This document shows positions 3,397-29,501 of a stretch of DNA of 57,441 nucleotides, in pieces (position 1 is the stretch's first letter; every line of letters begins with the position of its first letter). The notes under the pieces are model-generated. The model was not told where the DNA came from. It made no database searches and worked only from the letters and a program-made list of their open reading frames with translations. The stretch spans positions 1 through 57,441 of the forward strand of contig CAYLXC010000004.1 of the NCBI GenBank assembly GCA_964387865.1, read 5' to 3'. A program made the translations under genes and the position numbers. This DNA is from an uncultured Gammaproteobacteria bacterium (lineage in GTDB: Bacteria > Patescibacteriota > Microgenomatia > Daviesbacterales > UBA10151).

Positions 3397-3449
3397 ATAA
3401 TAAATAGTAAGCTATTTTTACTTTTCGTGTAAAGTTGTATTATTAAGGT

Positions 3450-4169
3450 GTGTTAAGAATGCTGCCCTTTATTGTAATAATTATTTTAGTTTTAGGTGGT
3501 TTGGGGTATTGGAGGTTTGTTGCTTCAGCACCTAAATTAGATACTCCACAAACGTCCCAAGATGATGGCCCGATTGAGGTCCCGAAAACTTTACCTGAAG
3601 CCTCTTTGGAGGACAGAATAAAAATTTTGGAGGATGTGGTATTAAAATTGGTTAAACAAGTTAATTCCTCAAAATCTACAACTACCCAAACTTCACCGGA
3701 TTCCGCTTCAGATTCTGACTCAAACACCCTGCAAGCTCAAGTAACAGAACTTAAGGCTCGAGTTTCAGCTTTGGAGAGTGGTTCTCCAGCCCCATCTGGA
3801 ATCTCTTCCAAATCCACAATTTATATTCCCTTAGGTTCTGGAGGACAAATGAGTAGCACAAGTTGGGTCACTCTTGATACTTTCCAAATAAGCTTGGATC
3901 CTTCTCAATACTCAGGATATTCAAGCATGCAACTTGAAGTAAATATGAGGCTAAACCAACCAGGTGGTACACTTTATGCCAGGTTATATAATTTGACATC
4001 TGGATCTGCAACCTCATCTGAGGTAACTTCAACTTCTACCTCTTCCACTGTTCAAACATCGTCCACTTTTACTCTGCCTTCCGGAAACAAAACTTACATA
4101 TTACAGGCAAAAACTTCAGATGGTACCTTAGGATTTTTGGATTATGCAAGAATAAAGGTGAATTTTTAA
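3450..4169 (+). CDS. hypothetical surface protein (N-terminal TM, coiled coil, Ser/Thr-rich beta domain)
   Basis: N-terminal hydrophobic helix, heptad segments (LEDRIKILEDVV; LQAQVTELKARVSALE), S/T-rich C-terminus. Confidence 0.75.
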   Translation: MLRMLPFIVIIILVLGGLGYWRFVASAPKLDTPQTSQDDGPIEVPKTLPEASLEDRIKILEDVVLKLVKQVNSSKSTTTQTSPDSASDSDSNTLQAQVTELKARVSALESGSPAPSGISSKSTIYIPLGSGGQMSSTSWVTLDTFQISLDPSQYSGYSSMQLEVNMRLNQPGGTLYARLYNLTSGSATSSEVTSTSTSSTVQTSSTFTLPSGNKTYILQAKTSDGTLGFLDYARIKVNF

Positions 4170-4271
4170 TTATTTTTCTTCTACAAAATGGAGAACAAAA
4201 ATTTCTCCCTGATAGGGAAGAGGAACCATAGTTACTTCAGTTTCTATTCTTACCATATTGGAAGTTATTAT

Positions 4272-4340
4272 CTAATCTATGGTGTATAAGATTTGGACTT
4301 TCCCGAAAAATCTCATCTTAAGAAGTTTATCATCATTAGT
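4272..4340 (-). pseudogene. 3'-terminal remnant of a PIN-domain toxin gene
   Basis: Translates TNDDKLLKMRFFGKVQILYTID*; 10 of 18 residues identical to the C-terminus of the PIN toxin at 6141-6509 (TSDARILNLRFFGKTKIL). Confidence 0.7.
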
Positions 4341-4786
4341 TACACTTTTTCATCAAGTTCGCAAACCATTTCGAGAGCAAACAATGCATGAGCGCGCAGG
4401 GATGTCATAGATCCTCTTTTGCTGATTTCAGTGGCGGCAATAGAATTTGGGTGTGTATTCTTCCAACTTTCTGATAGAGATTTAGTAACTCTATTAAGCC
4501 GGGAGTCCTCATCTATACTACACTGCTCATCTGGCCGTGCGTGAATTCGTGAAACTATTGCATGCTCAAAAGAGCCTGAAAGTGCAGACCCTCTTTCAGA
4601 TATTGGTACAAGAGTAAGTGCAAATGTTACTGCACGAATGTAAAAATGAGCATCATCTCCTCCGTCAAGTTGAGGTGACTTTTCTCGATTAAAATGAGTT
4701 AGACTTCTTAACATTAAATAAGGATCTGCCAGTAAGTAGTAGAGTCCGGGTGGTTCACCTCTGTTCAGTTTTTGTTCGTGATCCAT
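4340..4786 (-). CDS. hypothetical protein
   Basis: 148 aa ORF directly downstream of rmlD on the same strand; no family recognised. Confidence 0.6.
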   Translation of the reverse strand: MDHEQKLNRGEPPGLYYLLADPYLMLRSLTHFNREKSPQLDGGDDAHFYIRAVTFALTLVPISERGSALSGSFEHAIVSRIHARPDEQCSIDEDSRLNRVTKSLSESWKNTHPNSIAATEISKRGSMTSLRAHALFALEMVCELDEKV

Positions 4787-4800
4787 AAATAATATTTGAT

Positions 4801-5703
4801 TTATCTTTTAGCAGATCGTTGCTGAGAAACTACAATATCAAGTCCCTCATCAATATCATGCATCGGAATTTGGAATTTTTCAACTGCTCTTTTATTTGAT
4901 ATGCGTAAATGTCTATGATATGGTCTTCCGGATTCTTGCAGATACTGCGTCAAGCTTCCTTTTTGAATTAAACTTGCATCATAGCCACTGGCTCTAGCAA
5001 CTTTACAACCAAGTTCATAAGCGCTAAGCGAAGAGGAGCCAACGACATTGAGAATGCCTTGTGGTCTTTCTCTTATGATTACATCAACAGCTTCTGCGAT
5101 ATCATCAACAAACGTTGGAGTAAGGATATTATCTGAAAACTGCGGAGGGAGTGTTCTTTCTGCTATTCCGTTTTGTATTCTTCGGACAAGGTCAAATCTT
5201 TTTCGATATTCGGCCCGATATGGGGCTGCAATACGCATAATTGTATAAGAATGACACGTTTCTTCTACCAATTCTTCAGCTTGTGTTTTAGTCTTACCAT
5301 ACCACTCAATTGGATTGCGAGGAGATTCTTCCGTGTAATAATCATAACTATTACCATCATGCACGTAATCTGTGGATACATGTATAAGATGCTTCCCAAA
5401 ACGCGCACAAGCTTGTGCAACATTTTGCGTTCCGATCACGTTTACTTGGTAACAAAGTCCGTTTAAATCACTTTTTTGCTCAAAGGCTTTACCAACATCG
5501 GTAAAAGCTGCAAAATGAAGTACAATATCGCCTCTTGAACTTTCCAGAGCCTGATTCACTTGATTAGGATCAGTAATATCAGTACCAGTTGTCTGTAAAT
5601 CCAGATCTATTCCAAATTTATATCGTCCGCTTAACAATTCATATACTCGCGAGCCAACTAAACCTGCTCTTCCGGTTATAATAACTTCCTTATGCTCCAA
5701 CAT
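4801..5703 (-). CDS. rfbD: dTDP-4-dehydrorhamnose reductase family (extended SDR)
   Basis: GRAGLVG Rossmann motif, LHFAAFTDV, HVSTDYV, YGKTK (YxxxK), FSDNILTPTFVDDIA. Confidence 0.9.
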   Translation of the reverse strand: MLEHKEVIITGRAGLVGSRVYELLSGRYKFGIDLDLQTTGTDITDPNQVNQALESSRGDIVLHFAAFTDVGKAFEQKSDLNGLCYQVNVIGTQNVAQACARFGKHLIHVSTDYVHDGNSYDYYTEESPRNPIEWYGKTKTQAEELVEETCHSYTIMRIAAPYRAEYRKRFDLVRRIQNGIAERTLPPQFSDNILTPTFVDDIAEAVDVIIRERPQGILNVVGSSSLSAYELGCKVARASGYDASLIQKGSLTQYLQESGRPYHRHLRISNKRAVEKFQIPMHDIDEGLDIVVSQQRSAKR

Positions 5704-5750
5704 AAGTAGGCATTATAGGGAGATAATTTTGTGAAATCAAGTTGAGGATA

Positions 5751-5779
5751 TTGACAAGAAAATTTGGAAATGATACTTT
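5751..5779 (+). promoter_or_regulatory. sigma70-like promoter
   Basis: TTGACA, 17 nt, TACTTT; implies the true start is ATG 5793, not 5742. Confidence 0.55.
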
Positions 5780-5792
5780 AGGTATAACAAAT

Positions 5793-6152
5793 ATGAGCAG
5801 TTCCGAAATGCAGCCGGTAGCCTCCTATGATGAGCGCGTTGTTTCTTTGAGAGAGAAATTAGCAAATGTTTCTGGACAAAGTTTTCAGCTCAAAGGAACA
5901 GTTGAAAGGGTGATTTGGGGATGGCTTGGTGAAGGTCCGTTCACTGTTTCGGTACATGAAATCTCTGATATTTCGCGTATAGATATTGTTCATACGAATA
6001 GGCCAAACGTTGGGATAGGGATTAACGTAGGGATTGGTGAGATACTTGTTAATGAATGCGCTGGAACTGATAGTTATCCTGTTGACTGGCTTGGGGGGAG
6101 AAGTCTTGATTTGACCGAGAAACTTGTTGCCGCGCTGGAGCTAAAACCTTAG
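5793..6152 (+). CDS. hypothetical protein
   Basis: ORF track 5742-6152; start moved to ATG 5793 because the upstream part contains the promoter. Confidence 0.55.
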   Translation: MSSSEMQPVASYDERVVSLREKLANVSGQSFQLKGTVERVIWGWLGEGPFTVSVHEISDISRIDIVHTNRPNVGIGINVGIGEILVNECAGTDSYPVDWLGGRSLDLTEKLVAALELKP

Positions 6153-6509
6153 TAGAGATAGTATTTTGGTTTTTCCAAAAAATCTTAGATTAAGTATTCT
6201 AGCATCACTTGTTAAGAAAAAATCGCATTCAGCCTCAGCTGCAGAATGAAGTTGAATATTATCTTCTAAATCTTTCGTTGGATTAACTAAGGCTTTATCG
6301 AGAATGTATTTTGTTAAAGGCACTATGCCGAATTGCTCCTGCAGTTCATTTACGTCTTGGTCCGGGACTTTTAATTTGCGGGCATAGAACAGAATATGAG
6401 TTGAAAGAGGTGAGATAAAGAGTAAGTTCCCTCTTAGAGGTTTCCATTTCTCTTTTGCCCTTTTTGTTACATCAATATAAAAGTTTGTATCAAGAAAGAC
6501 CCTGGCCAT
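6141..6509 (-). CDS. PIN-domain (VapC-like) toxin
   Basis: VFLDTN, LEDNIQLHSA and FLTSD acidic PIN motifs; overlaps the upstream antitoxin. Confidence 0.9.
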   Translation of the reverse strand: MARVFLDTNFYIDVTKRAKEKWKPLRGNLLFISPLSTHILFYARKLKVPDQDVNELQEQFGIVPLTKYILDKALVNPTKDLEDNIQLHSAAEAECDFFLTSDARILNLRFFGKTKILSLLRF

Positions 6510-6753
6510 GTTTTTTCATCATCGCTGCTTTGTATCTTGTCTCTATTTGTCTTGGGGTGAGTTTGGGGAAGTTAAGTTTCTTGACGATTCTTGCGAATTT
6601 TTCAGGGTCAAAGGGCTTTGGGTCGTAAATTTTAGGTTTAATTTCACCAACAACCCTTGATCTATGAATTAGATCTACAGAATGTCCTTCCTGCAAAACT
6701 TTTACAAGCTCTTTTGACTTTGTTCTAAGCTCGGTAGTTGTTATGACCTGCAT
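6490..6753 (-). CDS. Phd/YefM-type antitoxin
   Basis: MQVITTTELRTKSKELVKVLQEGHSVDLIHRSRVVGEI matches the Phd N-terminal pattern; upstream of the PIN gene. Confidence 0.8.
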   Translation of the reverse strand: MQVITTTELRTKSKELVKVLQEGHSVDLIHRSRVVGEIKPKIYDPKPFDPEKFARIVKKLNFPKLTPRQIETRYKAAMMKKHGQGLS

Positions 6754-6759
6754 ATTTTA

Positions 6760-6788
6760 AATGTACACTTAAATATACATTTTGTCAA
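6760..6788 (-). promoter_or_regulatory. TA promoter with overlapping palindromic operator
   Basis: Minus-strand TTGACA (6788-6783), 17 nt, TACATT (6765-6760); inverted repeat AATGTA...TACATT at 6760-6781. Confidence 0.6.
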
Positions 6789-6891
6789 GAAAGTAAATAT
6801 AATTTTGGTAAATTTATAGTGAGCGAAATCGGAGCACTATATTGTAAGGTATTATTATTTAGTTTATGATTTGGTATATAATTATAAACTG

Positions 6892-7539
6892 ATGAGTGGA
6901 GAAATTTTGAAAGATACACAGCCAGATCCTGTTAGTCTTAATCTACAACTAAGACAACTTTATGAGCAGTTACCTCTTAATAAATTAAAGCGGGGAGAGC
7001 TTAAACCAGAAGATTTGGGATTGGCTGGCAATCTTGATATTCAACTTAATCCTAAATGGGCAGAAGCAGAAGGAATTAATGAACAGGATTTGATAGATGA
7101 TGTGGTTATAGCTTTGGCTGATAGTATAGAGAGAGATAGGCGAGCTAAATCTGAGATAAGATCAAGGTTACTGGATATTTTAGATCAGAAATTAATACCC
7201 TTTTCTAAAGCAAGTGAACCATGTAACTGGTACATAAGATATACAATTTCTGAACTAAGCGTTGATGGGGTAGATGAAAAAACTGCTGACAGATTGTGGT
7301 TTCTTGCAGAATCTGATAAGGCTGGAATATTTTCCCTTAATCCTTTAGAAGTATCTGAAATAGAAGAAAAAGGAAGTCATCGTATCAGAGAACAGATACA
7401 GTCAATAGAGGGACTTCATATTTTCAGTAAAGTTGATGATGAACTGAAAGATCTAAACATTACCTCTTTAGAATTGGCATCACAATATGATCAATGGGCG
7501 CCTGCTTATAAACAAAAATACGGAAAGTCTCTTGTATAA
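6892..7539 (+). CDS. hypothetical protein
   Basis: ORF track 6871-7539; ATG 6892 preferred because a TATAAT box lies just upstream; no family recognised. Confidence 0.65.
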   Translation: MSGEILKDTQPDPVSLNLQLRQLYEQLPLNKLKRGELKPEDLGLAGNLDIQLNPKWAEAEGINEQDLIDDVVIALADSIERDRRAKSEIRSRLLDILDQKLIPFSKASEPCNWYIRYTISELSVDGVDEKTADRLWFLAESDKAGIFSLNPLEVSEIEEKGSHRIREQIQSIEGLHIFSKVDDELKDLNITSLELASQYDQWAPAYKQKYGKSLV

Positions 7540-7564
7540 ATAACTCACAGCAGGCCTCTAGGAT
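7539..7564 (-). repeat. degenerate copy of the tRNA-Trp 3' end (att-like scar)
   Basis: AGCAGGCCT-CTAGGAT (7549-7564) vs AGCAGGCCTGCTAGGAT (8954-8970); both preceded by AATAACTC (7539-7546; 8939-8946). Confidence 0.55.
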
Positions 7565-7596
7565 CTATAACTCTTTTAAAGAGTAGACTGAGCTGA

Positions 7597-8004
7597 CTAT
7601 TTTGGACTTACAGGTCTCCTAAAACTTGCAGCATATGCTGGATCATTAATCCTTATTATGTCCCTTAACATATGTAAGGTATCCCATGCTTTCTGTCGTC
7701 TGTTTACAAAACGCACAAGTCCATATGGTGGTTCCTCTTCTTCTAGGTAATCAGCTATTGACAAAAGATTTTCACCTGTTGAAGTAAAGAAATCAGCTTC
7801 AATATGAGCTTTTGCACTCTCTCTCAAAGCTACTATATTAATCTCATGTAATATCCTTCTTGGTGTAATTAAGGCTAGGATGGTACTTGCCATCCCATCA
7901 ATATTAATCGGTAAATTAGCCATCATTCTATATGAATCCTTCAAAAGCGCCTCCGGCAGCTGCCCTAAAAGTTCTGGGGATTGATATGGCATATTATTGC
8001 TCAA
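7597..8004 (-). CDS. hypothetical protein
   Basis: 135 aa ORF, no family recognised. Confidence 0.6.
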   Translation of the reverse strand: MSNNMPYQSPELLGQLPEALLKDSYRMMANLPINIDGMASTILALITPRRILHEINIVALRESAKAHIEADFFTSTGENLLSIADYLEEEEPPYGLVRFVNRRQKAWDTLHMLRDIIRINDPAYAASFRRPVSPK

Positions 8005-8160
8005 ATAATATCAGGTTTGTAACAAGAAGTCAAACTATAAGTTATTTGCAGGGGTTAGTGAATGATTTCAGAACTTTAAATTGAGTTAAAAACGTTAAGT
8101 ACCCAGAATTAGCTTATCAAAAATCAGAGCAAATTCTCCAGCGGTAATAACCTTACATAG

Positions 8161-8189
8161 TTGACAAATCTTACAAATTGATATATCTT
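8161..8189 (+). promoter_or_regulatory. sigma70-like promoter of the second TA operon
   Basis: TTGACA (8161-8166), 17 nt, TATCTT (8184-8189), 9 nt before ATG 8199. Confidence 0.6.
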
Positions 8190-8198
8190 GAGATTAGA

Positions 8199-8507
8199 AT
8201 GAAAAGTGTAGTTTCTATAGATGAATTTAGAACTAACTTGGCTGAGTTAATTGGCAGGGTAATGTATGGCAGAGATAGGGTAGTGATTAAAAAATATAAT
8301 AGAGATGCAGCCATTCTAATGAGTGTTCAGGAATATGAAGAGCTAGTTGACCCTTCCAAAAGATTTTCTAAAAAACAATGGGAAAATAAGTTTGCCTTAA
8401 TAGATAAAATCAAGAAACGTATCTCAGATAAGGATCAAGATATCCTAGAATCTGAGATAGCTAATGCTGTCAGAGAGCTTAGAACTGTTAGAAGAAATGG
8501 GGTATGA
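8199..8507 (+). CDS. Phd/YefM-type antitoxin
   Basis: MKSVVSIDEFRTNLAELIGRVMYGRDRVVIKKYNRDAAILMSVQEYEEL is a classic Phd domain; start moved from 8178 to 8199. Confidence 0.9.
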   Translation: MKSVVSIDEFRTNLAELIGRVMYGRDRVVIKKYNRDAAILMSVQEYEELVDPSKRFSKKQWENKFALIDKIKKRISDKDQDILESEIANAVRELRTVRRNGV

Positions 8508-8935
8508 GCAAGCTCCTAGCAGTACTGGATACTAATGTTTTAATCTCTGCTGCTTTCAGAAAAAAAGATTCTATCCCCGGTCAAATATTACAAACATTAA
8601 GAGACCAAAAATTTATCCTTATTACTACTCCTGAGATATTAGCTGAGATTAAAGAAGTCCTTCACTATGAAAGAGTTTTGAAAATTACCAAAATGACTGA
8701 AGAGGAAATAAAAAGATTTATGCAGAATATTATTGACCTAGCTTTTATTGTACCAGGAAATGTAGTTGTTCAAACAGTTGAGAAAGACCCAGATGATGAT
8801 AAATTTTTAGCAGCAGCTGTAGAAGGCAGAGCTGACTATGTGGTTAGTGGAGATAAGCCATTATTGGATATAAAAGAATATCATGGAATTAGAACAGTTA
8901 CTCCTAAAGACTTCTTAGTATTGATTAGAGATTAA
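8504..8935 (+). CDS. PIN-family putative toxin
   Basis: AVLDTNVLISA, EIKEVL, KDPDDDKFLAAAVEGRADYVVSGDKPLL; 4-nt overlap with the antitoxin. Confidence 0.92.
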   Translation: MSKLLAVLDTNVLISAAFRKKDSIPGQILQTLRDQKFILITTPEILAEIKEVLHYERVLKITKMTEEEIKRFMQNIIDLAFIVPGNVVVQTVEKDPDDDKFLAAAVEGRADYVVSGDKPLLDIKEYHGIRTVTPKDFLVLIRD

Positions 8936-8955
8936 AATAATAACTCTTATTCAAG

Positions 8956-9026
8956 CAGGCCTGCTAGGATTCGAACCCAGGCTAATGCTTTTGGAGAGCA
9001 TTGTGCTACCATTACACCACAGGCCT
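8956..9026 (-). tRNA. trnW: tRNA-Trp (CCA)
   Basis: Reverse complement AGGCCTGTGGTGTAATGGTAGCACAATGCTCTCCAAAAGCATTAGCCTGGGTTCGAATCCTAGCAGGCCTG: 7-bp acceptor stem, anticodon loop CT-CCA-AA, TTCGAAT T-loop; CCA end not encoded. Confidence 0.95.
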
Positions 9027-9034
9027 AAACTCAA

Positions 9035-9280
9035 TTATTTTAGTTGAAGTCTTTTCAAAAGTCCAACATACGCGGAACCAAATTGCTTAAGTTTCCTTTC
9101 GCGTATTATAGCTGCCTCCTCATTATTATATGCCTCATAATAGATGAGCTCGGGTTCAGACATTCTCTTAGTGGTATAAACTTTTTTATTTTTGTGCTCA
9201 CTCAAACGACGTTCTAAATTGTTCGAATAGCCAAAATACAGTTTATTTTTTCTGTCCTTTAAGATATAAACAAAATACAT
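9035..9280 (-). CDS. small GIY-YIG nuclease family protein
   Basis: MYFVYIL...LYFGYSNNLERRLSEH...LIYYEAY...AIIRERKLK; start moved to ATG 9280 because the longer ORF only translates the upstream palindrome. Confidence 0.9.
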   Translation of the reverse strand: MYFVYILKDRKNKLYFGYSNNLERRLSEHKNKKVYTTKRMSEPELIYYEAYNNEEAAIIRERKLKQFGSAYVGLLKRLQLK

Positions 9281-9294
9281 ACTTGATGTTTTGG

Positions 9295-9320
9295 ATCCCG
9301 CCCTTCGCGAAGGGCGGGAT
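9295..9320. repeat. perfect 26-bp palindrome (REP-like)
   Basis: ATCCCGCCCTTCG|CGAAGGGCGGGAT, 15 nt upstream of the GIY-YIG start. Confidence 0.9.
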
Positions 9321-9362
9321 GGAGAGCGCCATGATACCATTTCATCACATCCCTAAGTTTTA

Positions 9363-9384
9363 CCATGTACCGCATGGTACATGG
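9363..9384. repeat. inverted repeat hairpin
   Basis: CCATGTACC-GCAT-GGTACATGG (9-bp arms). Confidence 0.85.
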
Positions 9385-9440
9385 CCTTACAATTTTACCC
9401 TATGAATGAATTTGCCGCAAATTGGCTCAAGTGGTAAAAT

Positions 9441-10646
9441 ATGCAAACCATGGCCCAACAGGAAATAGAGCTGCCCTGGCAAGCTGGAGGTGTTGTTTCC
9501 CCTAAAGAAGGTGAGAAGTTTGAGCCTTTTAAAGTTGCTCATCTAATATATCCAACACAAACAGAGTGGGATATTTTAGTTTGGAATGCAATAAATCGTA
9601 AACCATTGCAAACTGGGCAACTCCCTTTGCCAGAACAATTTGACGAACAGACAGAAAATGCTGTTAATTTGGATTTTATTAGAGTAGTTGTTGATGAGAA
9701 AGGAAATGTTCACTGGAGATATGGCCACAATATTAGGACAGAAGGAAGGTTGGTTTGGGATCTTAGACACCACGGTGGTAGATCAGGAATACCTACACTA
9801 GATGTTCCAATTAATCAGGCTGATAGAATTTTTGATAGAATTTTGGGTTTTCTCAAAGATGAAAGAACACCACAGAAACTTGAAGAAGAAAAAGCATCAC
9901 TAGAAGATGATAGTGAGACTACCCTAGTAACACCAGCGCTTACTTTCAGTGCTGCCATTGTTGGTTTAAGGGCAGCATCTTCTGTTGCAGAGGTTCCAGG
10001 TGAGCAAGCAAGAATCAGACATTATCTGGCATTGGTTGAAGAGGTTGTGAAGGGGCAAACTATTCCTACCACAACACCAAGATTAGAAGTAATGATTAAT
10101 AGAAGGCTCGATGCACTAAGAAGACAATTAGCTCATAAGCAAGCGCCGTCCCTGCAATTAGCTAGAGAAAATCTTGAGTTTTTCCTAAGTGAAAGAGATA
10201 GCCCAAATGCTTTGGACATATTAGTAGAAGTCCAACATGATTTTTTTGACAGATTAAGGTCGTTAAGTAATATCACATTAAGAATAGCAGCAAGACAAAT
10301 TGCTATGAGAAAGTTCAGAAATAATCAAGAAGATCTAATAGGTGAGGTGTATTTGAAAGTTATTGATTTTATCCATGATTGGAATAACATAGGTTGGAGT
10401 GAAGAGCAAGTTAAAATAAGAGGTAGGGATTTAAGTCATAGTAGAACTGCAACCAATCTAGCACAAGTGGTTGTCCAACCCTATAAAGCCCGAGCTGAAA
10501 GAGTTATGCGACTATTACGTCTTGATAATACCATAGAAAGTGAGGATTTTCTAAGACTTGCTAGGACGCTACAAGATGCTGCTTTGGAATTGCACGCTGC
10601 TGAAAGATATACTAAAAGAAGGAAATATGGTGAGGTTTTAATCTAA
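9441..10646 (+). CDS. hypothetical protein (helical C-terminal half)
   Basis: 401 aa ORF; no secure family. Confidence 0.75.
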   Translation: MQTMAQQEIELPWQAGGVVSPKEGEKFEPFKVAHLIYPTQTEWDILVWNAINRKPLQTGQLPLPEQFDEQTENAVNLDFIRVVVDEKGNVHWRYGHNIRTEGRLVWDLRHHGGRSGIPTLDVPINQADRIFDRILGFLKDERTPQKLEEEKASLEDDSETTLVTPALTFSAAIVGLRAASSVAEVPGEQARIRHYLALVEEVVKGQTIPTTTPRLEVMINRRLDALRRQLAHKQAPSLQLARENLEFFLSERDSPNALDILVEVQHDFFDRLRSLSNITLRIAARQIAMRKFRNNQEDLIGEVYLKVIDFIHDWNNIGWSEEQVKIRGRDLSHSRTATNLAQVVVQPYKARAERVMRLLRLDNTIESEDFLRLARTLQDAALELHAAERYTKRRKYGEVLI

Positions 10647-10811
10647 CTTTGTGGTTTCAGAATGTTCACTACTTTTTCTGCAGTGTTTACAAAATTTACT
10701 CAAAGTAAGCTTTTCTTTTATATTTATCGTGTTTTTTGAGCTTGTGTAATTTCTGTTTTTACAAACAGAACAAACTAAGCCTATTAAAATTCTATTTCCT
10801 TTTTTAGCCAT
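10638..10811 (-). CDS. rpmG: 50S ribosomal protein L33 (zinc-binding C+ form)
   Basis: Not in the ORF track. Translates MAKKGNRILIGLVCSVCKNRNYTSSKNTINIKEKLTLSKFCKHCRKSSEHSETTKLD*, with CxxC...NY...KN...KFCxxC. Confidence 0.95.
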   Translation of the reverse strand: MAKKGNRILIGLVCSVCKNRNYTSSKNTINIKEKLTLSKFCKHCRKSSEHSETTKLD

Positions 10812-10868
10812 AAGATGGGATTATACACTATATTATTGAGTCTAGCAAAATGATAAAATATAGAGCGT

Positions 10869-10939
10869 GCCTCCTTAGCTTAGTGGTAAAGCAGCGGTTT
10901 TGTAAACCGTCGACAACAGTTCGATTCTGTTAGGAGGCT
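10869..10939 (+). tRNA. trnT: tRNA-Thr (TGT)
   Basis: GCCTCCT/AGGAGGC acceptor stem, anticodon arm GCGGT-TT-TGT-AA-ACCGT, GTTCGATTC T-loop. Confidence 0.95.
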
Positions 10940-10947
10940 CATATTTT

Positions 10948-11019
10948 GCCGATGTGGCTCAGTGGCAGAGCACGTTCTTGGTAAGAACGGGGTCACGGGT
11001 TCGATTCCCGTCATCGGCT
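10948..11019 (+). tRNA. trnT: tRNA-Thr (GGT)
   Basis: GCCGATG/CATCGGC acceptor stem, anticodon arm CGTTC-TT-GGT-AA-GAACG, GGTTCGATTCC T-arm. Confidence 0.95.
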
Positions 11020-11038
11020 CAACAAAAATAATAATTTC

Positions 11039-11192
11039 TCCCTACTATAGTCGTTAGCCAAATTTCTTCCTCAGGAAACTGAGGTGGGTGTTCTGTGTCC
11101 CGTACCGTACGGTACAGGGCAACTTCCAAACTCCCGTATGTTAACAAAACAGTGAAGAAAAATATTTTGGCTTTAAACGTGCAATGTAGGGA
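11039..11192 (-). ncRNA. ssrS: probable 6S RNA
   Basis: Rod-like fold traced by eye: closing stem UCCCUAC/GUAGGGA, CGUU/AACG, AGCCAAA/UUUGGCU, UUUCUUC/GAAGAAA; central bubble with a 3' hairpin CCUCAG/CUGAGG; terminal stem GGGAGUUU/GAACACCC and GUACC/GGUAC. AGCCAAAAUAUUU and GACAC..CACCU recall E. coli 6S motifs. Dedicated upstream promoter. Confidence 0.55.
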
Positions 11193-11266
11193 TGCTTTCA
11201 AGGAAGTTAGACTTCCCCTGGGCAGCTCCTTCAGGCCATCTACTTAATGTCCTTTAGGATAATTTT

Positions 11267-11295
11267 ATCCTAGTACTAAAACTGGGATTTGTCAA
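11267..11295 (-). promoter_or_regulatory. sigma70 promoter driving the structured RNA
   Basis: Minus-strand TTGACA (11295-11290), 17 nt, TAGGAT (11272-11267); no ORF downstream. Confidence 0.65.
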
Positions 11296-11331
11296 GTCGC
11301 CCAAATCTTGTTAACCGAATGGGTCGAAGGA

Positions 11332-11970
11332 CTAGAACCCTAAGAGTTTACTTCCTATTCCAACAAAAAAGCCTAAAATAGTTTGAAGTAGAGAGCTTTT
11401 GCCAAAAGGAATCATAAGTAAAATTAAAAGAATCAAAATTCCATAAGGTTCAAGCCGCTGATATGATTTGGCCAAATTATAGGGGAGTTGGGACAAAAGA
11501 ATTTTGGATCCGTCCAAAGGCGGGATGGGAAAAAGATTAAAAATTCCCAAAACCAAATTAATCATGGCTGTAAAATGCAAAAGAGAACCAATAAGAGAAG
11601 GAAAAAGAATAGGTATCGCATCAAGAATCTGAAAAGTGATGGCAGCTGCAATAGCAAGTCCGAAATTTGAAAGTATTCCTGCTGCTGAAACTGCAAACTC
11701 CCCCCTCTTTATATTGGAAAAATTCAAGGGATTTACAGGAACTGGTTTGGCCCAGCCAAAAAGGATTGGGGAGCCGGTGATAATTAAAAGGCCTGGAAGC
11801 AAAATTGTTCCAAAAAGATCAATATGGGGAATAGGATTTAACGTTAACCTTCCAGCCTTTTGTGCAGTATGATCTCCGAATCTTAAGGCTACAAATCCAT
11901 GCATGACCTCGTGTAGGATAACTGAAAAAAGGAGTATTACTATAGATAAAGCTAGAAATTCAGGGTTCAT
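11332..11970 (-). CDS. site-2 protease, peptidase M50 family
   Basis: HEVMHG zinc motif, LTLNPIPHID, FGWAKPVPVNP, NLFPIPPLDG; ATG 11970 preferred over 12000. Confidence 0.93.
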   Translation of the reverse strand: MNPEFLALSIVILLFSVILHEVMHGFVALRFGDHTAQKAGRLTLNPIPHIDLFGTILLPGLLIITGSPILFGWAKPVPVNPLNFSNIKRGEFAVSAAGILSNFGLAIAAAITFQILDAIPILFPSLIGSLLHFTAMINLVLGIFNLFPIPPLDGSKILLSQLPYNLAKSYQRLEPYGILILLILLMIPFGKSSLLQTILGFFVGIGSKLLGF

Positions 11971-12095
11971 AGTACAATAGTTTATACGATAGTTACCCAA
12001 TTGTCATTAGGCTGTTTTTGGGTATATCTACCCTACTTTTGGCACTGGCACAAAAAAGCAAATCTCTTTTTACATCATTATGCTATAATGAGCTT

Positions 12096-13202
12096 ATGAG
12101 TGGGGAAAGGCCTGACCCTGATTTATCTAGTCAACCAGACACAGTTTACGTCCCTCGGAACCGTGCAGAGCGTCTGCACAAATCACCTGCCATTACCACC
12201 TCTGGAAACGTACGTGAACTTCGAGTTCCAAGATTGCGGAGAAAAGACCTTGAATACGGCAATGCCGTTGAAGTTATGGATAGTCTTGTTGATATTGCCC
12301 GGCAAGCAGGAGAAGAGATACTAAGCAGCAAAGTTGTTATTCGTGATGAAGGCACTGTTTCCGGTCATGAAACCTCAAGTATTGATTCAGTTGCCAGAAA
12401 CATTGTTGATAATCTTTTGAATGAAAAGCTCCCGCATATTGATGGCGTGAGACGATTTGAACTACATCCTTATGAACGACGATTATTGATGGCGGCGGAG
12501 CGTGGAACACTAAGAGGATTTTTTATCATCGATGAAATAGACGGAACTACCAATACGAAAAGGGCTATGGCATCACCTTTTCGCTATCGGCCACAAGCAG
12601 GTGTATCAATTGCATTTTCTCCAACAGAGCAAATGGGAGATATACAAACAGTAGCGCTTTATTTGCTTAATGATCAAGAAACATTTTCTGCGCTTCGAAT
12701 TGGCGATAGGTACCAGGCGTTTCATGAAGGACGTCTTATACGGCCAACAGAGATTGAAGCAACGCCGGGAGATTCCGCACAGAGAGTGTTGGTTGTAGGG
12801 TATTCAAATTCCCATCGATTAGAAAAGGCAGAGATTGAAGATGTGCTTGTCCGAGAAAGGGGAATAAGACCGTACGATGGTACTCGCTCAAGTTCTGTTG
12901 ATATTATAAATGTGATACGTGGTCAGTATGATGCATATATAGATTTACGTGCGCTTTGGGGAGGAGATACAAGAACCGAAGCTCGGCTTGAAGCGTATGA
13001 TGTTGCTGCAGCAATCCCCATTGCATTAGGTGCTGGTCTTACTGCTTCAGATGGTTTTGGGGATTCTTGGAAAAAGTATAATGGGATGTTACCTCTTACC
13101 CTCGTTGTTGCAAGACCAAAACTTCATAGCAAGATTCTTGAGACCATTAGCCCCGTGGTTGCACGTCAGAATGGAGTACAAGTATGGCCCCAGAGCAATT
13201 AA
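12096..13202 (+). CDS. inositol monophosphatase / FIG-superfamily phosphatase
   Basis: IIDEIDGTTN (cf. IDPIDGT), RLEAYDVAAAIPIALGAGLTASDG (cf. WDxAAG..I..EAGG..TD); extended -10 TGcTATAAT upstream supports start 12096. Confidence 0.8.
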   Translation: MSGERPDPDLSSQPDTVYVPRNRAERLHKSPAITTSGNVRELRVPRLRRKDLEYGNAVEVMDSLVDIARQAGEEILSSKVVIRDEGTVSGHETSSIDSVARNIVDNLLNEKLPHIDGVRRFELHPYERRLLMAAERGTLRGFFIIDEIDGTTNTKRAMASPFRYRPQAGVSIAFSPTEQMGDIQTVALYLLNDQETFSALRIGDRYQAFHEGRLIRPTEIEATPGDSAQRVLVVGYSNSHRLEKAEIEDVLVRERGIRPYDGTRSSSVDIINVIRGQYDAYIDLRALWGGDTRTEARLEAYDVAAAIPIALGAGLTASDGFGDSWKKYNGMLPLTLVVARPKLHSKILETISPVVARQNGVQVWPQSN

Positions 13203-13217
13203 GGAAAAGTAATATCT

Positions 13218-13760
13218 ATGCAAGCAAATAGTCCTGAACAACGTCCACTGGATCCTCGAATTGAGCAGTATCTGCTACCAGAAGCTGAGCTTAGGGAAAA
13301 ACTGAAAGCAACCAATGCATTAATTAGTGATCAAGAACTGGAAATACTTAAAGGCAGATCAATAATCAGGACTTCTGTCTTGGAAACTGTTGCTCCTTAC
13401 CATAATTTAAGTCAAAGAAGGTCAGGCGTTCGACCATATGTATTCAGACTACATGACGTAGGTGTTTATACGAATGATGTTACAAGGCAAAAATATTTGA
13501 TTTATTTATTAGATACTCACGGTTATAAGCACTTTACTCGGATGAGATGGAATGTTGAGGATGGACTTCTAGAGATGACTATTCAGAGTATCCAATATTC
13601 AGAACCTATAGCAGCGCAAGAAGCAACCATATATCCATTTATGACTATTTGGAGATTTGAAAATCCGGGTCTGTTTTTAGAAAAGGGTGGTAACTATAAA
13701 GGCGATGACTTTATTCAAGCGCTTCCTTTATTGCATTCATTTGCTGATTTGAAATTATAA
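13218..13760 (+). CDS. hypothetical protein
   Basis: 180 aa ORF 15 nt downstream of the IMPase gene. Confidence 0.65.
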   Translation: MQANSPEQRPLDPRIEQYLLPEAELREKLKATNALISDQELEILKGRSIIRTSVLETVAPYHNLSQRRSGVRPYVFRLHDVGVYTNDVTRQKYLIYLLDTHGYKHFTRMRWNVEDGLLEMTIQSIQYSEPIAAQEATIYPFMTIWRFENPGLFLEKGGNYKGDDFIQALPLLHSFADLKL

Positions 13761-13849
13761 AATACCTGACTATACCTGACTATATAGGAATAATCAGCTC
13801 CACAAATTTAGTGAAATGGCTCTAAACGACACCCAGTATTGGTGGGTTG

Positions 13850-13909
13850 ATCAGTCCTATCGTTGCGGCACGCAGTAGCAAACAACAGGCATGGCCACAG
13901 AGTAATTAA
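13850..13909 (+). pseudogene. 3'-terminal remnant of an IMPase-like gene
   Basis: Translates ISPIVAARSSKQQAWPQSN*, matching the C-terminus ISPVVARQNGVQVWPQSN* of 12096-13202 including the stop. Confidence 0.7.
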
Positions 13910-14186
13910 GAATTTATTGCTATTGAAATTAAATTTGCAACGTATCATGCCAAAGTTTGGTGGGAAGGAAACGAAGAACCAGAATCATACGGAGCTTTGT
14001 TTAGCTCTTTCACCTTCGGTGAAAGAATCGGTCGAGTACTAAGAACTATAGATGAAGTAATTGTTGATGATAGGAACGTGTTACCCAATATATCTAATTA
14101 CCAGGAAATGCTTCGTAACTCGAGTACCCAGTAACCCTCAAAAGTCCGTGTTGTGTAATTGTGATGTTTGTGCTAGACTTTTGCAT

Positions 14187-24450: not shown

Positions 24451-25207
24451 TTTTCAAAATCTCCTGAATTTGGCTATGTAATTTGAGTGCTGCCTCTCTA
24501 GGATTGGGGGCAAAAATGATGCTTCGAGATGAGTTTATTATTAAACCTTGTTTTTCGCTATTCAGACCATTCTTTATTGTACCTTCCAAATCTCCACCCT
24601 GAGCTCCAATACCCGGAACCAAAATTGGCATATCCCCAACGATTTTTCTCACCTCACCAATTTCTTTTGGATAAGTTGCCCCGACAACAACTGCCAAATT
24701 TCCATTTTCATTCCAGTCTTTTACATGCTGAGCCACCACTTGATAAAGTGATTTACCACCCACTTTTAAATCCTGGAATTCGCCTGCTCCTTTATTTGAT
24801 GTTTTAACCAAAATAAAAATTCCTTTATCACTTCTTTTTAAAAATGGTAAAAGGGATTCTTTTCCTAAATAAGGATGAATTGTGACAGCATCTGCTGCCA
24901 AATCATCAAAAATAGCTTTTACGTATGCTTCATTGGTATTGCCAATATCTCCACGCTTGGCATCTAAAATAACTGGAATATCAGGATAATTTTGATGAAT
25001 GTGTTGAACGATTTTCTTTAAAGATTCCCATCCAACTGATCCTTCTGCCTCAAAAAAAGCGATGTTTATTTTGTAAGCACAAACTAAATCGGAAGTATCA
25101 TTAACAATCTTCTGAATAAGAGGAAGATCAGAGGAGTCTAAACCAACACAAACAAATTTCCCCTCATCCCACCTTGTTTTTAATTTATCTATAAAAGTTT
25201 TGCCCAT
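24443..25207 (-). CDS. pyrF: orotidine-5'-phosphate decarboxylase
   Basis: VCVGLD, YKIN, ILDAKRGDIGNT, VVGATYP, LVPGIGAQGG, NSSRSII. Confidence 0.95.
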   Translation of the reverse strand: MGKTFIDKLKTRWDEGKFVCVGLDSSDLPLIQKIVNDTSDLVCAYKINIAFFEAEGSVGWESLKKIVQHIHQNYPDIPVILDAKRGDIGNTNEAYVKAIFDDLAADAVTIHPYLGKESLLPFLKRSDKGIFILVKTSNKGAGEFQDLKVGGKSLYQVVAQHVKDWNENGNLAVVVGATYPKEIGEVRKIVGDMPILVPGIGAQGGDLEGTIKNGLNSEKQGLIINSSRSIIFAPNPREAALKLHSQIQEILKNV

Positions 25208-28412: not shown

Positions 28413-29501
28413 ATGATTAAAAATATACCTTATCTTTTAGCGCTGCATTCTATAGTTGGTTTGGGGCCGGTGAGGCTTAAGGTTTTAATTGAGCATTTTA
28501 AAGATCCAAAAATTGCTTGGGAGGCAATATCCAAGGAACTTTTAAAAATAGGAATACCCAAAAATGTTGTTGATCTTTTGGTGGAAACACGAAATAATAT
28601 GGATCCCCAGACTTATGCTAATGATATCAGGGACGTAGGTATTAAATGGATAACTATATACGAAGAATCCTATCCCAACCTCCTGAAGCAAATTTATGAC
28701 CCGCCTATTGTTTTATATTACAAAGGCGTATTTCCAGTTGCTGGTGAAAAAGCCATAGCAGTTGTTGGAACAAGAAAAATGACAGGTTATGGAAAAATTG
28801 TGACAGACCAATTTACAAGGGAATTGGTTAATGCAGGATTAACAATCGTTTCAGGACTTGCCCGTGGGGTTGATAGTCAAGCTCATCTGAGTGCCCTTGA
28901 AGCAAATGGTAGAACTATTGCTATTTTAGGCGGAGGTTTAAATCAAATTTACCCTCCGGAAAATAGAGGATTGGCAGATAAAATTATCGATGGTCATGGT
29001 GCAATAATTTCTGAATTTCCTCCAGATTATCCCTCGCTTCCAGGTAACTTTCCTGCAAGAAATAGGATTATTTCAGGTCTTTCTTTGGCTGTTTTAGTAA
29101 CAGAGGCAGCAGAGGATTCAGGTTCTTTAATTACTGCAAGAGCTGCTGTGGAACAAGGCCGTGAAGTTTTTGCGGTACCAGGGCCAATAACATCTAATTT
29201 ATCAAAAGGTCCAATAGATTTAATCAAGGAAGGGGCAAAGCCTGTAACTGAAGTAGAGGAAATATTGGAAGAACTGGGAATAAGTAAAGTTAAAAGTTCA
29301 AAGTTAAAAATTCAAAGTGAAATAGAAGTATCTGAAAGTGAGAAGAAGATTTTGGATTGTTTGGAAAATGAGAATAGACATATTGATGAAATCTGTAGAA
29401 ATTTGAATTTATCAGCATCTCTTGTTTCAGCCAATTTATTAAAAATGGAAATTGCCGGATTAGTTCAAAACTTGGGAAGCGGTAACTATTGCAAAACATG
29501 A
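28413..29501 (+). CDS. dprA: DNA-processing protein DprA
   Basis: IAVVGTR, IVSGLARGVD, FPARNRIISGLS, GSLITA, VFAVPG; C-terminal winged helix. Confidence 0.97.
   Translation: MIKNIPYLLALHSIVGLGPVRLKVLIEHFKDPKIAWEAISKELLKIGIPKNVVDLLVETRNNMDPQTYANDIRDVGIKWITIYEESYPNLLKQIYDPPIVLYYKGVFPVAGEKAIAVVGTRKMTGYGKIVTDQFTRELVNAGLTIVSGLARGVDSQAHLSALEANGRTIAILGGGLNQIYPPENRGLADKIIDGHGAIISEFPPDYPSLPGNFPARNRIISGLSLAVLVTEAAEDSGSLITARAAVEQGREVFAVPGPITSNLSKGPIDLIKEGAKPVTEVEEILEELGISKVKSSKLKIQSEIEVSESEKKILDCLENENRHIDEICRNLNLSASLVSANLLKMEIAGLVQNLGSGNYCKT
29286..29318. repeat. heptamer array in the dprA interdomain linker
   Basis: AAAGTTA AAAGTTC AAAGTTA AAAATTC AAAGT, read as KVKSSKLKIQS. Confidence 0.75.

Follow-up and report, generated by a model that had tools for sequence, protein, structure and literature searches.

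How does a gene come to stand intact while a diverged copy of its last codons lies downstream, with other genes in between? This question is raised three times by the window analysed here, a stretch of DNA of 57,441 nt. In 4272-14134 of the window, a PIN-domain toxin gene, a tRNA-Trp gene and a gene of the inositol-monophosphatase (IMPase) family are each followed by inserted genes (cargo) and then by a short copy of their own 3' end (echo). The original prediction for this DNA had explained the three cases by homology-facilitated illegitimate recombination (HFIR) and regarded them as an integrase-free way of stacking accessory genes. In this study, we found that all three echoes are real (Table 1) and that the same architecture recurs at other genes of the genome and at the polA gene of related genomes; the interpretation given at the time is partly supported. 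We favour the insertion of cassettes by a single crossover guided by a copy of the gene's tail, or insertion with long target duplication, and give this explanation a probability of about 0.5. The window is contig C4 of a 954-kb genome (G000; 35.7% G+C, 42 contigs), which is a tiny Daviesbacteria-like genome of the candidate phyla radiation (CPR); close homologues of its proteins are recorded as Candidatus Daviesbacteria.

The resident PIN toxin gene ends in ..LTSDARILNLRFFGKTKILSLLRF*, where the asterisk stands for the stop codon. Its echo, 1.8 kb away and co-oriented, reads VTNDDKLLKMRFFGKVQILYTID* and was detected by local tblastn over the cargo region with an E value of 2.7e-4. No further piece of the PIN gene, or of the 87-aa gene that overlaps its start, is echoed in 3400-6140 beyond the tail. 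From its position, the 87-aa partner is a putative antitoxin. The PIN family is large (more than 700 homologous clusters at 75-86% identity), and the echo shares 15/18 residues with one member, P0057, which ends in ..TNDQELLKMKFFGKVQIL, versus 10/18 with the neighbouring resident gene. Judged by these residues, the echo is nearer to other family members than to the PIN gene that it adjoins. The surroundings in which the pair of 87-aa and 120-122-aa PIN genes recurs are unrelated; in L105, for instance, it lies within an operon of the mevalonate pathway. The conservation of the module in the window (6141-6753) is unusually high for a toxin-antitoxin (TA) toxin.

The IMPase gene ends in ..ISPVVARQNGVQVWPQSN*, and its echo, 0.65 kb downstream and co-oriented, reads ISPIVAARSSKQQAWPQSN* with the stop codon in register (local E 0.002 over the cargo region). 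No other piece of the gene was echoed in the cargo region beyond the tail. The ending WPQSN* is common to the echo and the closest IMPase homologue, L015 (67% identity), and is absent from the wider family. Upstream of its best-conserved stretch, the echo continues as a diverged homologue of the gene. The IMPase gene is missing from 39/40 related genomes. In L015 a different gene lies downstream of the IMPase gene and its start overlaps the WPQSN* tail; an in-frame TAG at L015 2211-2213 divides this IMPase into called products of 301 + 54 aa. A donor layout for the 180-aa cargo gene was not seen among its homologues, which are 43-47% identical and adjoin TPR and other genes, with no IMPase gene beside them.

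At the tRNA-Trp locus the echo is also co-oriented, at a spacing of 1.4 kb. The pattern ATCCTAG(N0-1)AGGCCTGCT has exactly two matches in the window, 8954-8970 and 7549-7564, both on the minus strand, and none of 100 shuffled sequences contained it. The echo is preceded by a short hairpin and TTATAG. Phd-PIN cassettes paralogous to the pair in this cargo are present on contigs C5, C9 and C16. The tRNA-Trp loci of relatives were too distant or too short for comparison.

Other tRNA sites of the genome carry small elements of their own. Behind tRNA-Lys and tRNA-Gly there are elements of about 120-135 nt, and one orphan copy also exists (C5 1115-1324, C5 41367-41590 and C11 ~25000-25100 on the minus strand). 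They have in common the motif AGCTGTTCG, a GC hairpin and GGTTATT, after which comes a copy of a tRNA's last 17 nt; the hairpin that stands with TTATAG before the tRNA-Trp echo is similar. Seven small GIY-YIG genes (79-101 aa) were counted in the genome, of which one adjoins tRNA-Trp and another (C5 25600-25854) a 112-nt repeat on C5 that is described below. A distantly related pair of orphan genes with 25% identity was found at the same two places: a 222-aa orphan (6871-7539, plus strand) adjoins the tRNA-Trp echo, and a 204-aa orphan (C5 26065-26679, plus strand) adjoins the C5 repeat.

A genome-wide search for C-terminal echoes had been suggested by the original prediction. The last 35 aa of 1029 open reading frames (ORFs) were compared by tblastn with the whole genome, and full-length paralogs were left out. 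There were 11 fragment matches on the same contig at E<=0.02, and 9/11 were co-oriented and lay 0.3-3.5 kb downstream of the query gene. About 20 random matches over a search space of 1.9 Mb give ~0.05 per 5-kb co-oriented downstream window, against which the nine observed echoes represent a clear directional excess. The single protein echoes are weak when taken alone (E 6e-3 to 2e-2 each). Three of the nine (C7, C29 and C12) are variable repeat/template repeat pairs of diversity-generating retroelements (DGRs), spaced by ~325 nt: their mismatches lie only at adenines of the downstream copy, and genes for a reverse transcriptase and bAvd adjoin. We set these pairs aside because they are a separate, already known phenomenon. 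The six that remain belong to the PIN and IMPase genes of the window, a 512-aa gene (C13), polA (C15), a holA-like gene (C7) and a 348-aa gene (C5), and all six echoes are 13-24 codons long, co-oriented and 0.65-3.5 kb downstream. A control screen of 1.23 Mb of unrelated bacterial loci, which is a weak control, gave only low-complexity noise from spurious high-GC ORFs. Exact 55-nt repeats that lie 101 nt apart around N runs on many G000 contigs (e.g. C1 1395-1604) are scaffolding artefacts.

The echoes in the window have a sharp 5' edge, and the copy stops at or near the stop codon. Since only the tails are echoed and nothing else of the PIN gene, its partner or the IMPase gene, these copies are not decayed full-length paralogs. 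The two copies in the window cases are ~60-65% identical. Five gene/echo pairs were pooled, giving 81 aligned codons with 56 identical residues and 67 nucleotide differences, which fall at codon positions 1/2/3 as 19/14/34. The large share of synonymous differences noticed originally is thus present, and simulated neutral decay gave less conservative divergence than the pooled pairs show (P<=2e-4). Taken alone the test carries little weight, since picking the echoes by protein similarity biases it. The accompanying claim that the scars derive from a diverged homologue holds for at least some of them, namely the PIN echo and several polA scars that keep the common GEMKPL.. or GEMEKL.. ending where the resident tail ends differently.

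The cargo of these six loci and of the tRNA-Trp locus consists mostly of type II TA modules. The polA cargo on C15 holds a 113-aa orphan, an antitoxin-ParE pair and a MazE-PIN pair, the cargo of the holA-like gene a Phd-PIN pair, and that of the 348-aa gene a Phd-PIN pair and two orphans. Orphan cargo gave no matches to NCBIfam and PADLOC. Pfam scans of the cargo ORFs at no fewer than ten loci in six genomes detected no integrase, resolvase or transposase domain, in agreement with the integrase-free character proposed for the cases in the window. Elsewhere in the genome, PF00589 is found only on C20 and C25, both matches being Xer-like and in housekeeping neighbourhoods, and PF00239 only on C11, in one large serine recombinase. 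Little sequence separates the parts at the junctions: at the PIN, polA and holA-like sites, the last cargo ORF stops within the echo or no more than 5 nt from it, and the first polA cargo ORF begins 1 nt past the polA stop. In DQAEF of the holA-like echo, the Ala of the family consensus is retained, and the resident gene has Ser there; in the 11 nearest relatives, no echo of the holA-like tail was found within 1.5 kb. At the 348-aa gene, the C5 repeat is 112 nt long and 97% identical, with 70 nt of it beyond the stop, so young near-identical pairs also exist. Additional direct repeats of 39-47 nt bound Phd-PIN cassettes at C9 13301/15208/17344 and at C16 5116/7488 and 6417/7349/8781. Some of them begin at or beside the preceding gene's stop codon, and they are probably further cases of the same architecture at the DNA level.

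Because the window loci have no close relatives, polA was chosen for comparison. Among 96 genomes of the family, polA was found in 93, and five loci were fetched and compared in layout with that of G000. Variable cargo follows polA in these six loci. Beyond it, 5/6 have a conserved gene for a membrane protein, encoded on the opposite strand (G015 lacks it, and in G111 it is truncated), and a conserved 270-aa gene follows in 6/6. Downstream, co-oriented echoes of the polA tail were found in G000 (two), in G011, G111, G018, G098 and G003 (one each), and in G110, which has two clear echoes and a 6-aa trace. The polA 3' end is thus a hot spot, with echoes that recur in at least seven genomes of several genera, with differing cargo. 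The cargo of the relatives includes HicAB, DUF4258/MqsA-like, NMO-like and similar genes, and no recombinase was found in it. In four further genomes, polA itself is interrupted in frame by ~1.2-1.7 kb (G009:C4, G010:C47, G083:C35, G091:C3), and the open frames are 861-1232 aa long, as if DNA polymerase I had received an intein or a similar insertion.

The polA-tail copies separate the cassettes, as two of the genomes illustrate. The order in G110 is polA, HicB-HicA and a 396-aa gene, echo, antitoxin(-ParE remnant), echo, MazE-PIN and the membrane gene; in G000 it is polA, the 113-aa orphan and antitoxin-ParE, echo, MazE-PIN, echo and the membrane gene. Accessory genes are therefore stacked at this site, as had been proposed for the window. 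The proximal repeat in G110 extends over 224 nt at 87% identity, of which 116 nt are leader/promoter sequence downstream of the stop, while the distal echoes are short and decayed. G000, G011 and G110, which represent three genera, have orthologous MazE-PIN cassettes at the most distal position, and the nucleotide identity of these cassettes, ~69%, is like that of the flanking genes. The short distal echoes and the orthologous distal cassette suggest that new cassettes enter beside polA and older ones shift outward. This age gradient is consistent with entry at the resident tail.

We also compared the short polA echoes with the resident tail of the same genome. In 6/8 of them, a core of 16-29 nt (AAYTGGGGNGARATGRA and its surroundings) is identical to that tail, and the identity extends to the synonymous choices AAT/AAC and GAA/GAG. 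Each synonymous combination occurs in ~20% of the 30 resident tails listed, and agreement in 6/8 by chance has, by our own count, a P of ~1e-3. In at least three of the echoes, the residues downstream of the identical core are of another allele type. The echo in G098 reads ..GEMKPLHI and the resident gene ..GEMKLLNP*; in G018 the endings are ..GEMEKLSL and ..GEMEVV*, and for the second echo of G110 they are ..GEMKPLN and ..GEMKELNI*. The first echo of G000 (..GEMKPD* against ..GEMKEIRI* in the resident gene) shows the allele switch, with a core not identical to its own tail. The echo endings KPL.. and EKL.. are common among the resident tails of the family.

Table 1. Features of the window, and the three DGRs found elsewhere in the genome (positions on the contig named). 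Remarks give the basis of assignment or the content.
Feature	Position	Strand	Remarks
Displaced PIN tail (echo), case 1	4272-4343	-	
148-aa orphan, case 1	4340-4786	-	stop codon within first codons of PIN echo
RmlD-like reductase, case 1	4801-5703	-	
136-aa orphan, case 1	5742-6152	+	
Case 1 cargo	4344-6140	-	136-aa orphan, RmlD-like reductase, 148-aa orphan
PIN-domain toxin gene, 122 aa, intact resident gene	6141-6509	-	PF13470 PIN_3, E 1e-5, 26.8 bits, slightly below cut-off
87-aa partner gene overlapping PIN start	6490-6753	-	no Pfam, NCBIfam or PADLOC match
tRNA-Trp echo, case 2	7535-7564	-	last 16-17 nt of tRNA (7549-7564) and ~13 nt resembling the tRNA's 3' flank
135-aa orphan, case 2	7597-8004	-	
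Phd/YefM antitoxin, case 2	8178-8507	+	
PIN_3 toxin, case 2	8504-8935	+	
Case 2 cargo	7565-8954	-	Phd/YefM antitoxin, PIN_3 toxin, 135-aa orphan
tRNA-Trp (CCA), resident gene	8955-9026	-	ARAGORN
Small GIY-YIG nuclease-domain gene, 5' side of tRNA-Trp	9035-9340	-	PF01541, E 1.9e-13; context only
IMPase-family gene, intact resident gene	12018-13202	+	PF00459, E 6e-11
Case 3 cargo	13203-13849	+	180-aa orphan gene (13218-13760) and ~90 nt
Displaced IMPase tail (echo), case 3	13850-13909	+	
dprA (DNA-processing protein A)	28629-29249	+	PF02481, E 1.3e-80; context, transformation machinery
DGR	C7 5457-8042		C-terminal variable repeat in target gene, template repeat ~325 nt downstream, bAvd, reverse transcriptase
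DGR	C29 7144-9729		same content and spacing
DGR	C12 25357-27788		same content and spacing

An identical core with switched flanks, repeats of 16-224 nt that run past the stop, and ordered arrays are what a single reciprocal crossover yields. We therefore favour the following course. Cassettes would have been inserted repeatedly at the very end of resident genes or of a tRNA, with the old end left downstream as a scar. The incoming DNA would carry the cassette and a short copy of the tail, tens of nt to ~220 nt long, sometimes with sequence from beyond the stop codon. Where the two tails match best, a single reciprocal crossover would then place the cassette between two tail copies, as in a Campbell-type insertion. 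The proximal copy would combine the 5' part of the recipient with the 3' part of the donor, so that the gene stays intact, and the distal copy, made of the 5' part of the donor and the 3' part of the recipient, would be the dead echo. Repeated insertion at one tail could produce an array of mostly type II TA cassettes separated by tail copies. The single crossover would also account for the diverged part of the IMPase echo upstream of its best-conserved stretch. As no recombinase gene travels with the cassettes, we infer that host functions do the joining, either the general recombination machinery once DNA has been taken up or, possibly, a recombinase of the host that acts in trans. Competence and the retention of genes for homologous recombination have been reported for Patescibacteria (PMC12455944).

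Several points weigh against this explanation. The cores of 16-29 nt reach at best the length that RecA-dependent exchange usually requires, and a target that spans a tRNA from the T-loop to the 3' end, as at the tRNA-Trp site, is the classical signature of a tyrosine integrase. Gene conversion between the two copies could likewise have made the polA cores identical to their own tail. No cassette was seen in a circular or excised form. The window cases have no identical run longer than 7-9 nt, which is too short for RecA today, so that either the events are old or another enzyme acted; we regard the three window insertions as old. For none of them was an empty site or a donor pair found in the collections, which hold no close relative: the sole other contig with L33 and L28 is 100% identical to the window and may come from the same assembly, and a scan of genome contigs for the M50 peptidase returned only relatives of <=54% identity from other phyla. 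In L105 and L109, no echo of the genes adjoining the PIN module was detectable, which indicates that not every insertion leaves such a scar. Because of the short runs and the missing empty site, the mechanism proposed for the window cases is modelled on what the polA arrays and the C5 repeat suggest.

HFIR, in which linear diverged DNA is anchored by homology in the gene and its far end is joined illegitimately in the recipient's tail, predicts unique joints at microhomologies of 3-12 nt in arbitrary positions. The short identical runs at the junctions in the window agree with it, as do cargo without a recombinase and echoes that resemble alleles diverged under selection. The process is established in several transformable species (PMC3240628); dprA, to which the original prediction had drawn attention, is present in the window, and the competence reported for Patescibacteria (PMC12455944) is also in its favour. 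However, the range of echo lengths is narrow in all six non-DGR cases, with no longer gene fragment among them, and one polA core is reused across genera. The polA cores and the repeats of 112-224 nt far exceed such microhomologies, and the repeats often run beyond the stop codon in both copies. Long near-identical repeats and the T-loop-to-3'-end shape of the tRNA echo fit a guided single crossover or a long target duplication better than random end joining, and we consider HFIR unlikely. Classical site-specific integration would instead see the cassettes as remnants or trans-mobilised miniatures, similar to cis-mobilizable elements, of integrase-bearing islands whose attP mimics the 3' end of a tRNA or protein gene; the integrase gene would have been lost or lie elsewhere. 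The tRNA-Trp, tRNA-Lys and tRNA-Gly echoes span the segment typical of attB, small tRNA-associated elements share a conserved arm motif, identical cores with differing flanks look like attL/attR pairs, and the genome does encode one large serine and two tyrosine recombinases. The icd/icdC pair around e14 has the same architecture (PMC13626634, citing Hill et al. 1989). Yet no recombinase was found in or beside the cargo of the ten or more loci in six genomes, both tyrosine recombinases look like Xer, and many specificities would be needed for polA, the holA-like gene, IMPase, PIN, the 348-aa gene, the 512-aa gene and the tRNAs. The repeats range in length from 16 to 224 nt, and homology of the distal IMPase copy upstream of the best-conserved stretch is unexpected for precise att recombination. 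This origin also appears improbable.

Local duplication of tandem paralogs or of a 3' region, followed by decay to the tail and filling of the gap with unrelated genes, would suit a genome that has tandem paralogs with similar C-termini, and the near-identical C5 and G110 repeats do look like fresh duplications. It is very unlikely, given that the cargo contains no upstream part of PIN, its partner or IMPase, that the 5' edges are sharp and three echoes abut the stop of an intact cargo ORF, that the PIN echo is nearer to other family members than to its neighbour, and that the polA echoes recur with different cargo across genera. Chance similarity or an assembly artefact, such as strain variants joined in one contig, might be suspected of a metagenome-assembled genome (MAG) in which each protein echo is individually weak and the only other copy of the contig is identical and possibly from the same assembly. 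The directional excess of the screen, the stops in register, the lineage-specific WPQSN* common to the echo and L015, the tRNA pattern missing from all shuffles, and the same polA architecture in MAGs of at least seven other species make this extremely unlikely. Three other candidates were rejected. A DGR does not fit the window echoes, which differ at all four bases with no reverse transcriptase in 4272-14134. For an integron, no integrase was found near any array, and the inter-cassette repeats are gene-tail copies. Integration of the Xer/dif type (integrative mobile elements exploiting Xer) was rejected because the targets are many and unrelated.

To our knowledge, a mechanism for the spread of chromosomal TA modules without mobility genes of their own has long been lacking. 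Behind an essential gene, the loci described here preserve the alternation of cassette and tail copy as a concrete structural record, which is found again in different genera of a family that has very few genes of mobile elements. If the tail copy guides insertion, this would explain the place of the cassettes behind housekeeping genes, would allow insertions to be dated and ordered, and would open the process to experiments in laboratory bacteria that can be transformed. Annotation is affected too, since a scar may be taken for a pseudogene or a small ORF, and the ends of resident genes may be chimeric. As a tentative and rather doubtful extension, type II TA modules and some orphans in CPR bacteria may be recombinase-free mobile cassettes, each with a short copy of the 3' end of a conserved host gene or tRNA that serves as its 'address label' by homology. 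Entering at that tail, they would supply the gene with a functional new end and displace the former one downstream. The ends of essential genes such as polA would then act like integrase-less integron platforms that record successive insertions, and a cassette-borne or host nuclease (PIN toxins, or the abundant small GIY-YIG proteins encoded beside two of the sites) might make the targeted break that begins the exchange.

The architecture can be compared with several known systems. DGR pairs also have a co-oriented, diverged 3'-end copy ~0.3 kb downstream, but they are marked by adenine-only mismatches and by a reverse transcriptase and bAvd, and the window echoes have neither. In the Rhs/CDI (contact-dependent inhibition) polymorphic toxin loci, a new end with an accessory gene displaces the old end downstream as an orphan, and repetition of this gives an array. 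The displaced piece there is a functional toxin tip with an immunity gene and diversifies the protein, whereas here it is 13-24 housekeeping codons without a function of their own. TA-rich sedentary chromosomal integrons likewise stack small cassettes in one orientation, with the youngest nearest the entry beside a fixed gene. In contrast to them, the present arrays have no IntI, the PF00589 matches being Xer-like and elsewhere, and their inter-cassette repeat is the coding tail of the neighbouring gene. No attI or attC was recognised at the arrays, where attC folding was not tested systematically.

The integration of e14 or phage 21 in icd is similar in that an intact gene is followed by the element and by a displaced C-terminal fragment, the icdC pseudogene, and the differences between the two tails include synonymous changes (PMC13626634). 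As with targets restored by such elements, the resident genes here are intact with their echoes downstream, the resident polA ending differs from the common type of the echoes, and the tRNA-Trp echo has the usual attB shape of tRNA islands. Identical cores are 16-29 nt in the polA echoes of relatives, versus the 7-9-nt runs of the window cases. Those elements differ in carrying their own integrase and in being at least 10 kb long; the inserts here are 0.65-3.5 kb and recombinase-free at ten loci or more with unrelated targets. We found no description in the literature of TA cassettes that lie between displaced housekeeping-gene tails.

The structure observed here cannot be distinguished from insertion with long target duplication, which is known for units of restriction-modification (R-M) genes (Nobusato et al. 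2000, cited in Furuta, Abe & Kobayashi 2010, PMC2853133). In the latter paper, these insertions are described as flanked by variable direct repeats of more than 30 bp that correspond to one copy in the empty site, without a transposase or integrase; some of the repeats overlap a gene's 3' end, and the species are mostly naturally competent. Furuta et al. 2010 considered direct repeats >30 bp, inserts <20 kb and no mobility genes. The coding repeats here are ~40-66 nt, the C5 repeat is 112 nt, the tRNA repeat has 17 + ~13 nt, and the inserts remain within 0.65-3.5 kb. By the identity between their two copies, the repeats of C5 (112 nt, 97%) and G110 (224 nt, 87%) match the description, whereas the ~60-65% identity of the window copies is like that of different alleles and not of a fresh duplication. 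The cargo also differs, consisting of TA modules and orphans with no R-M genes. Furthermore, insertion here always targets a tRNA 3' end or a gene's final 13-24 codons, and the same tail is reused for arrays.

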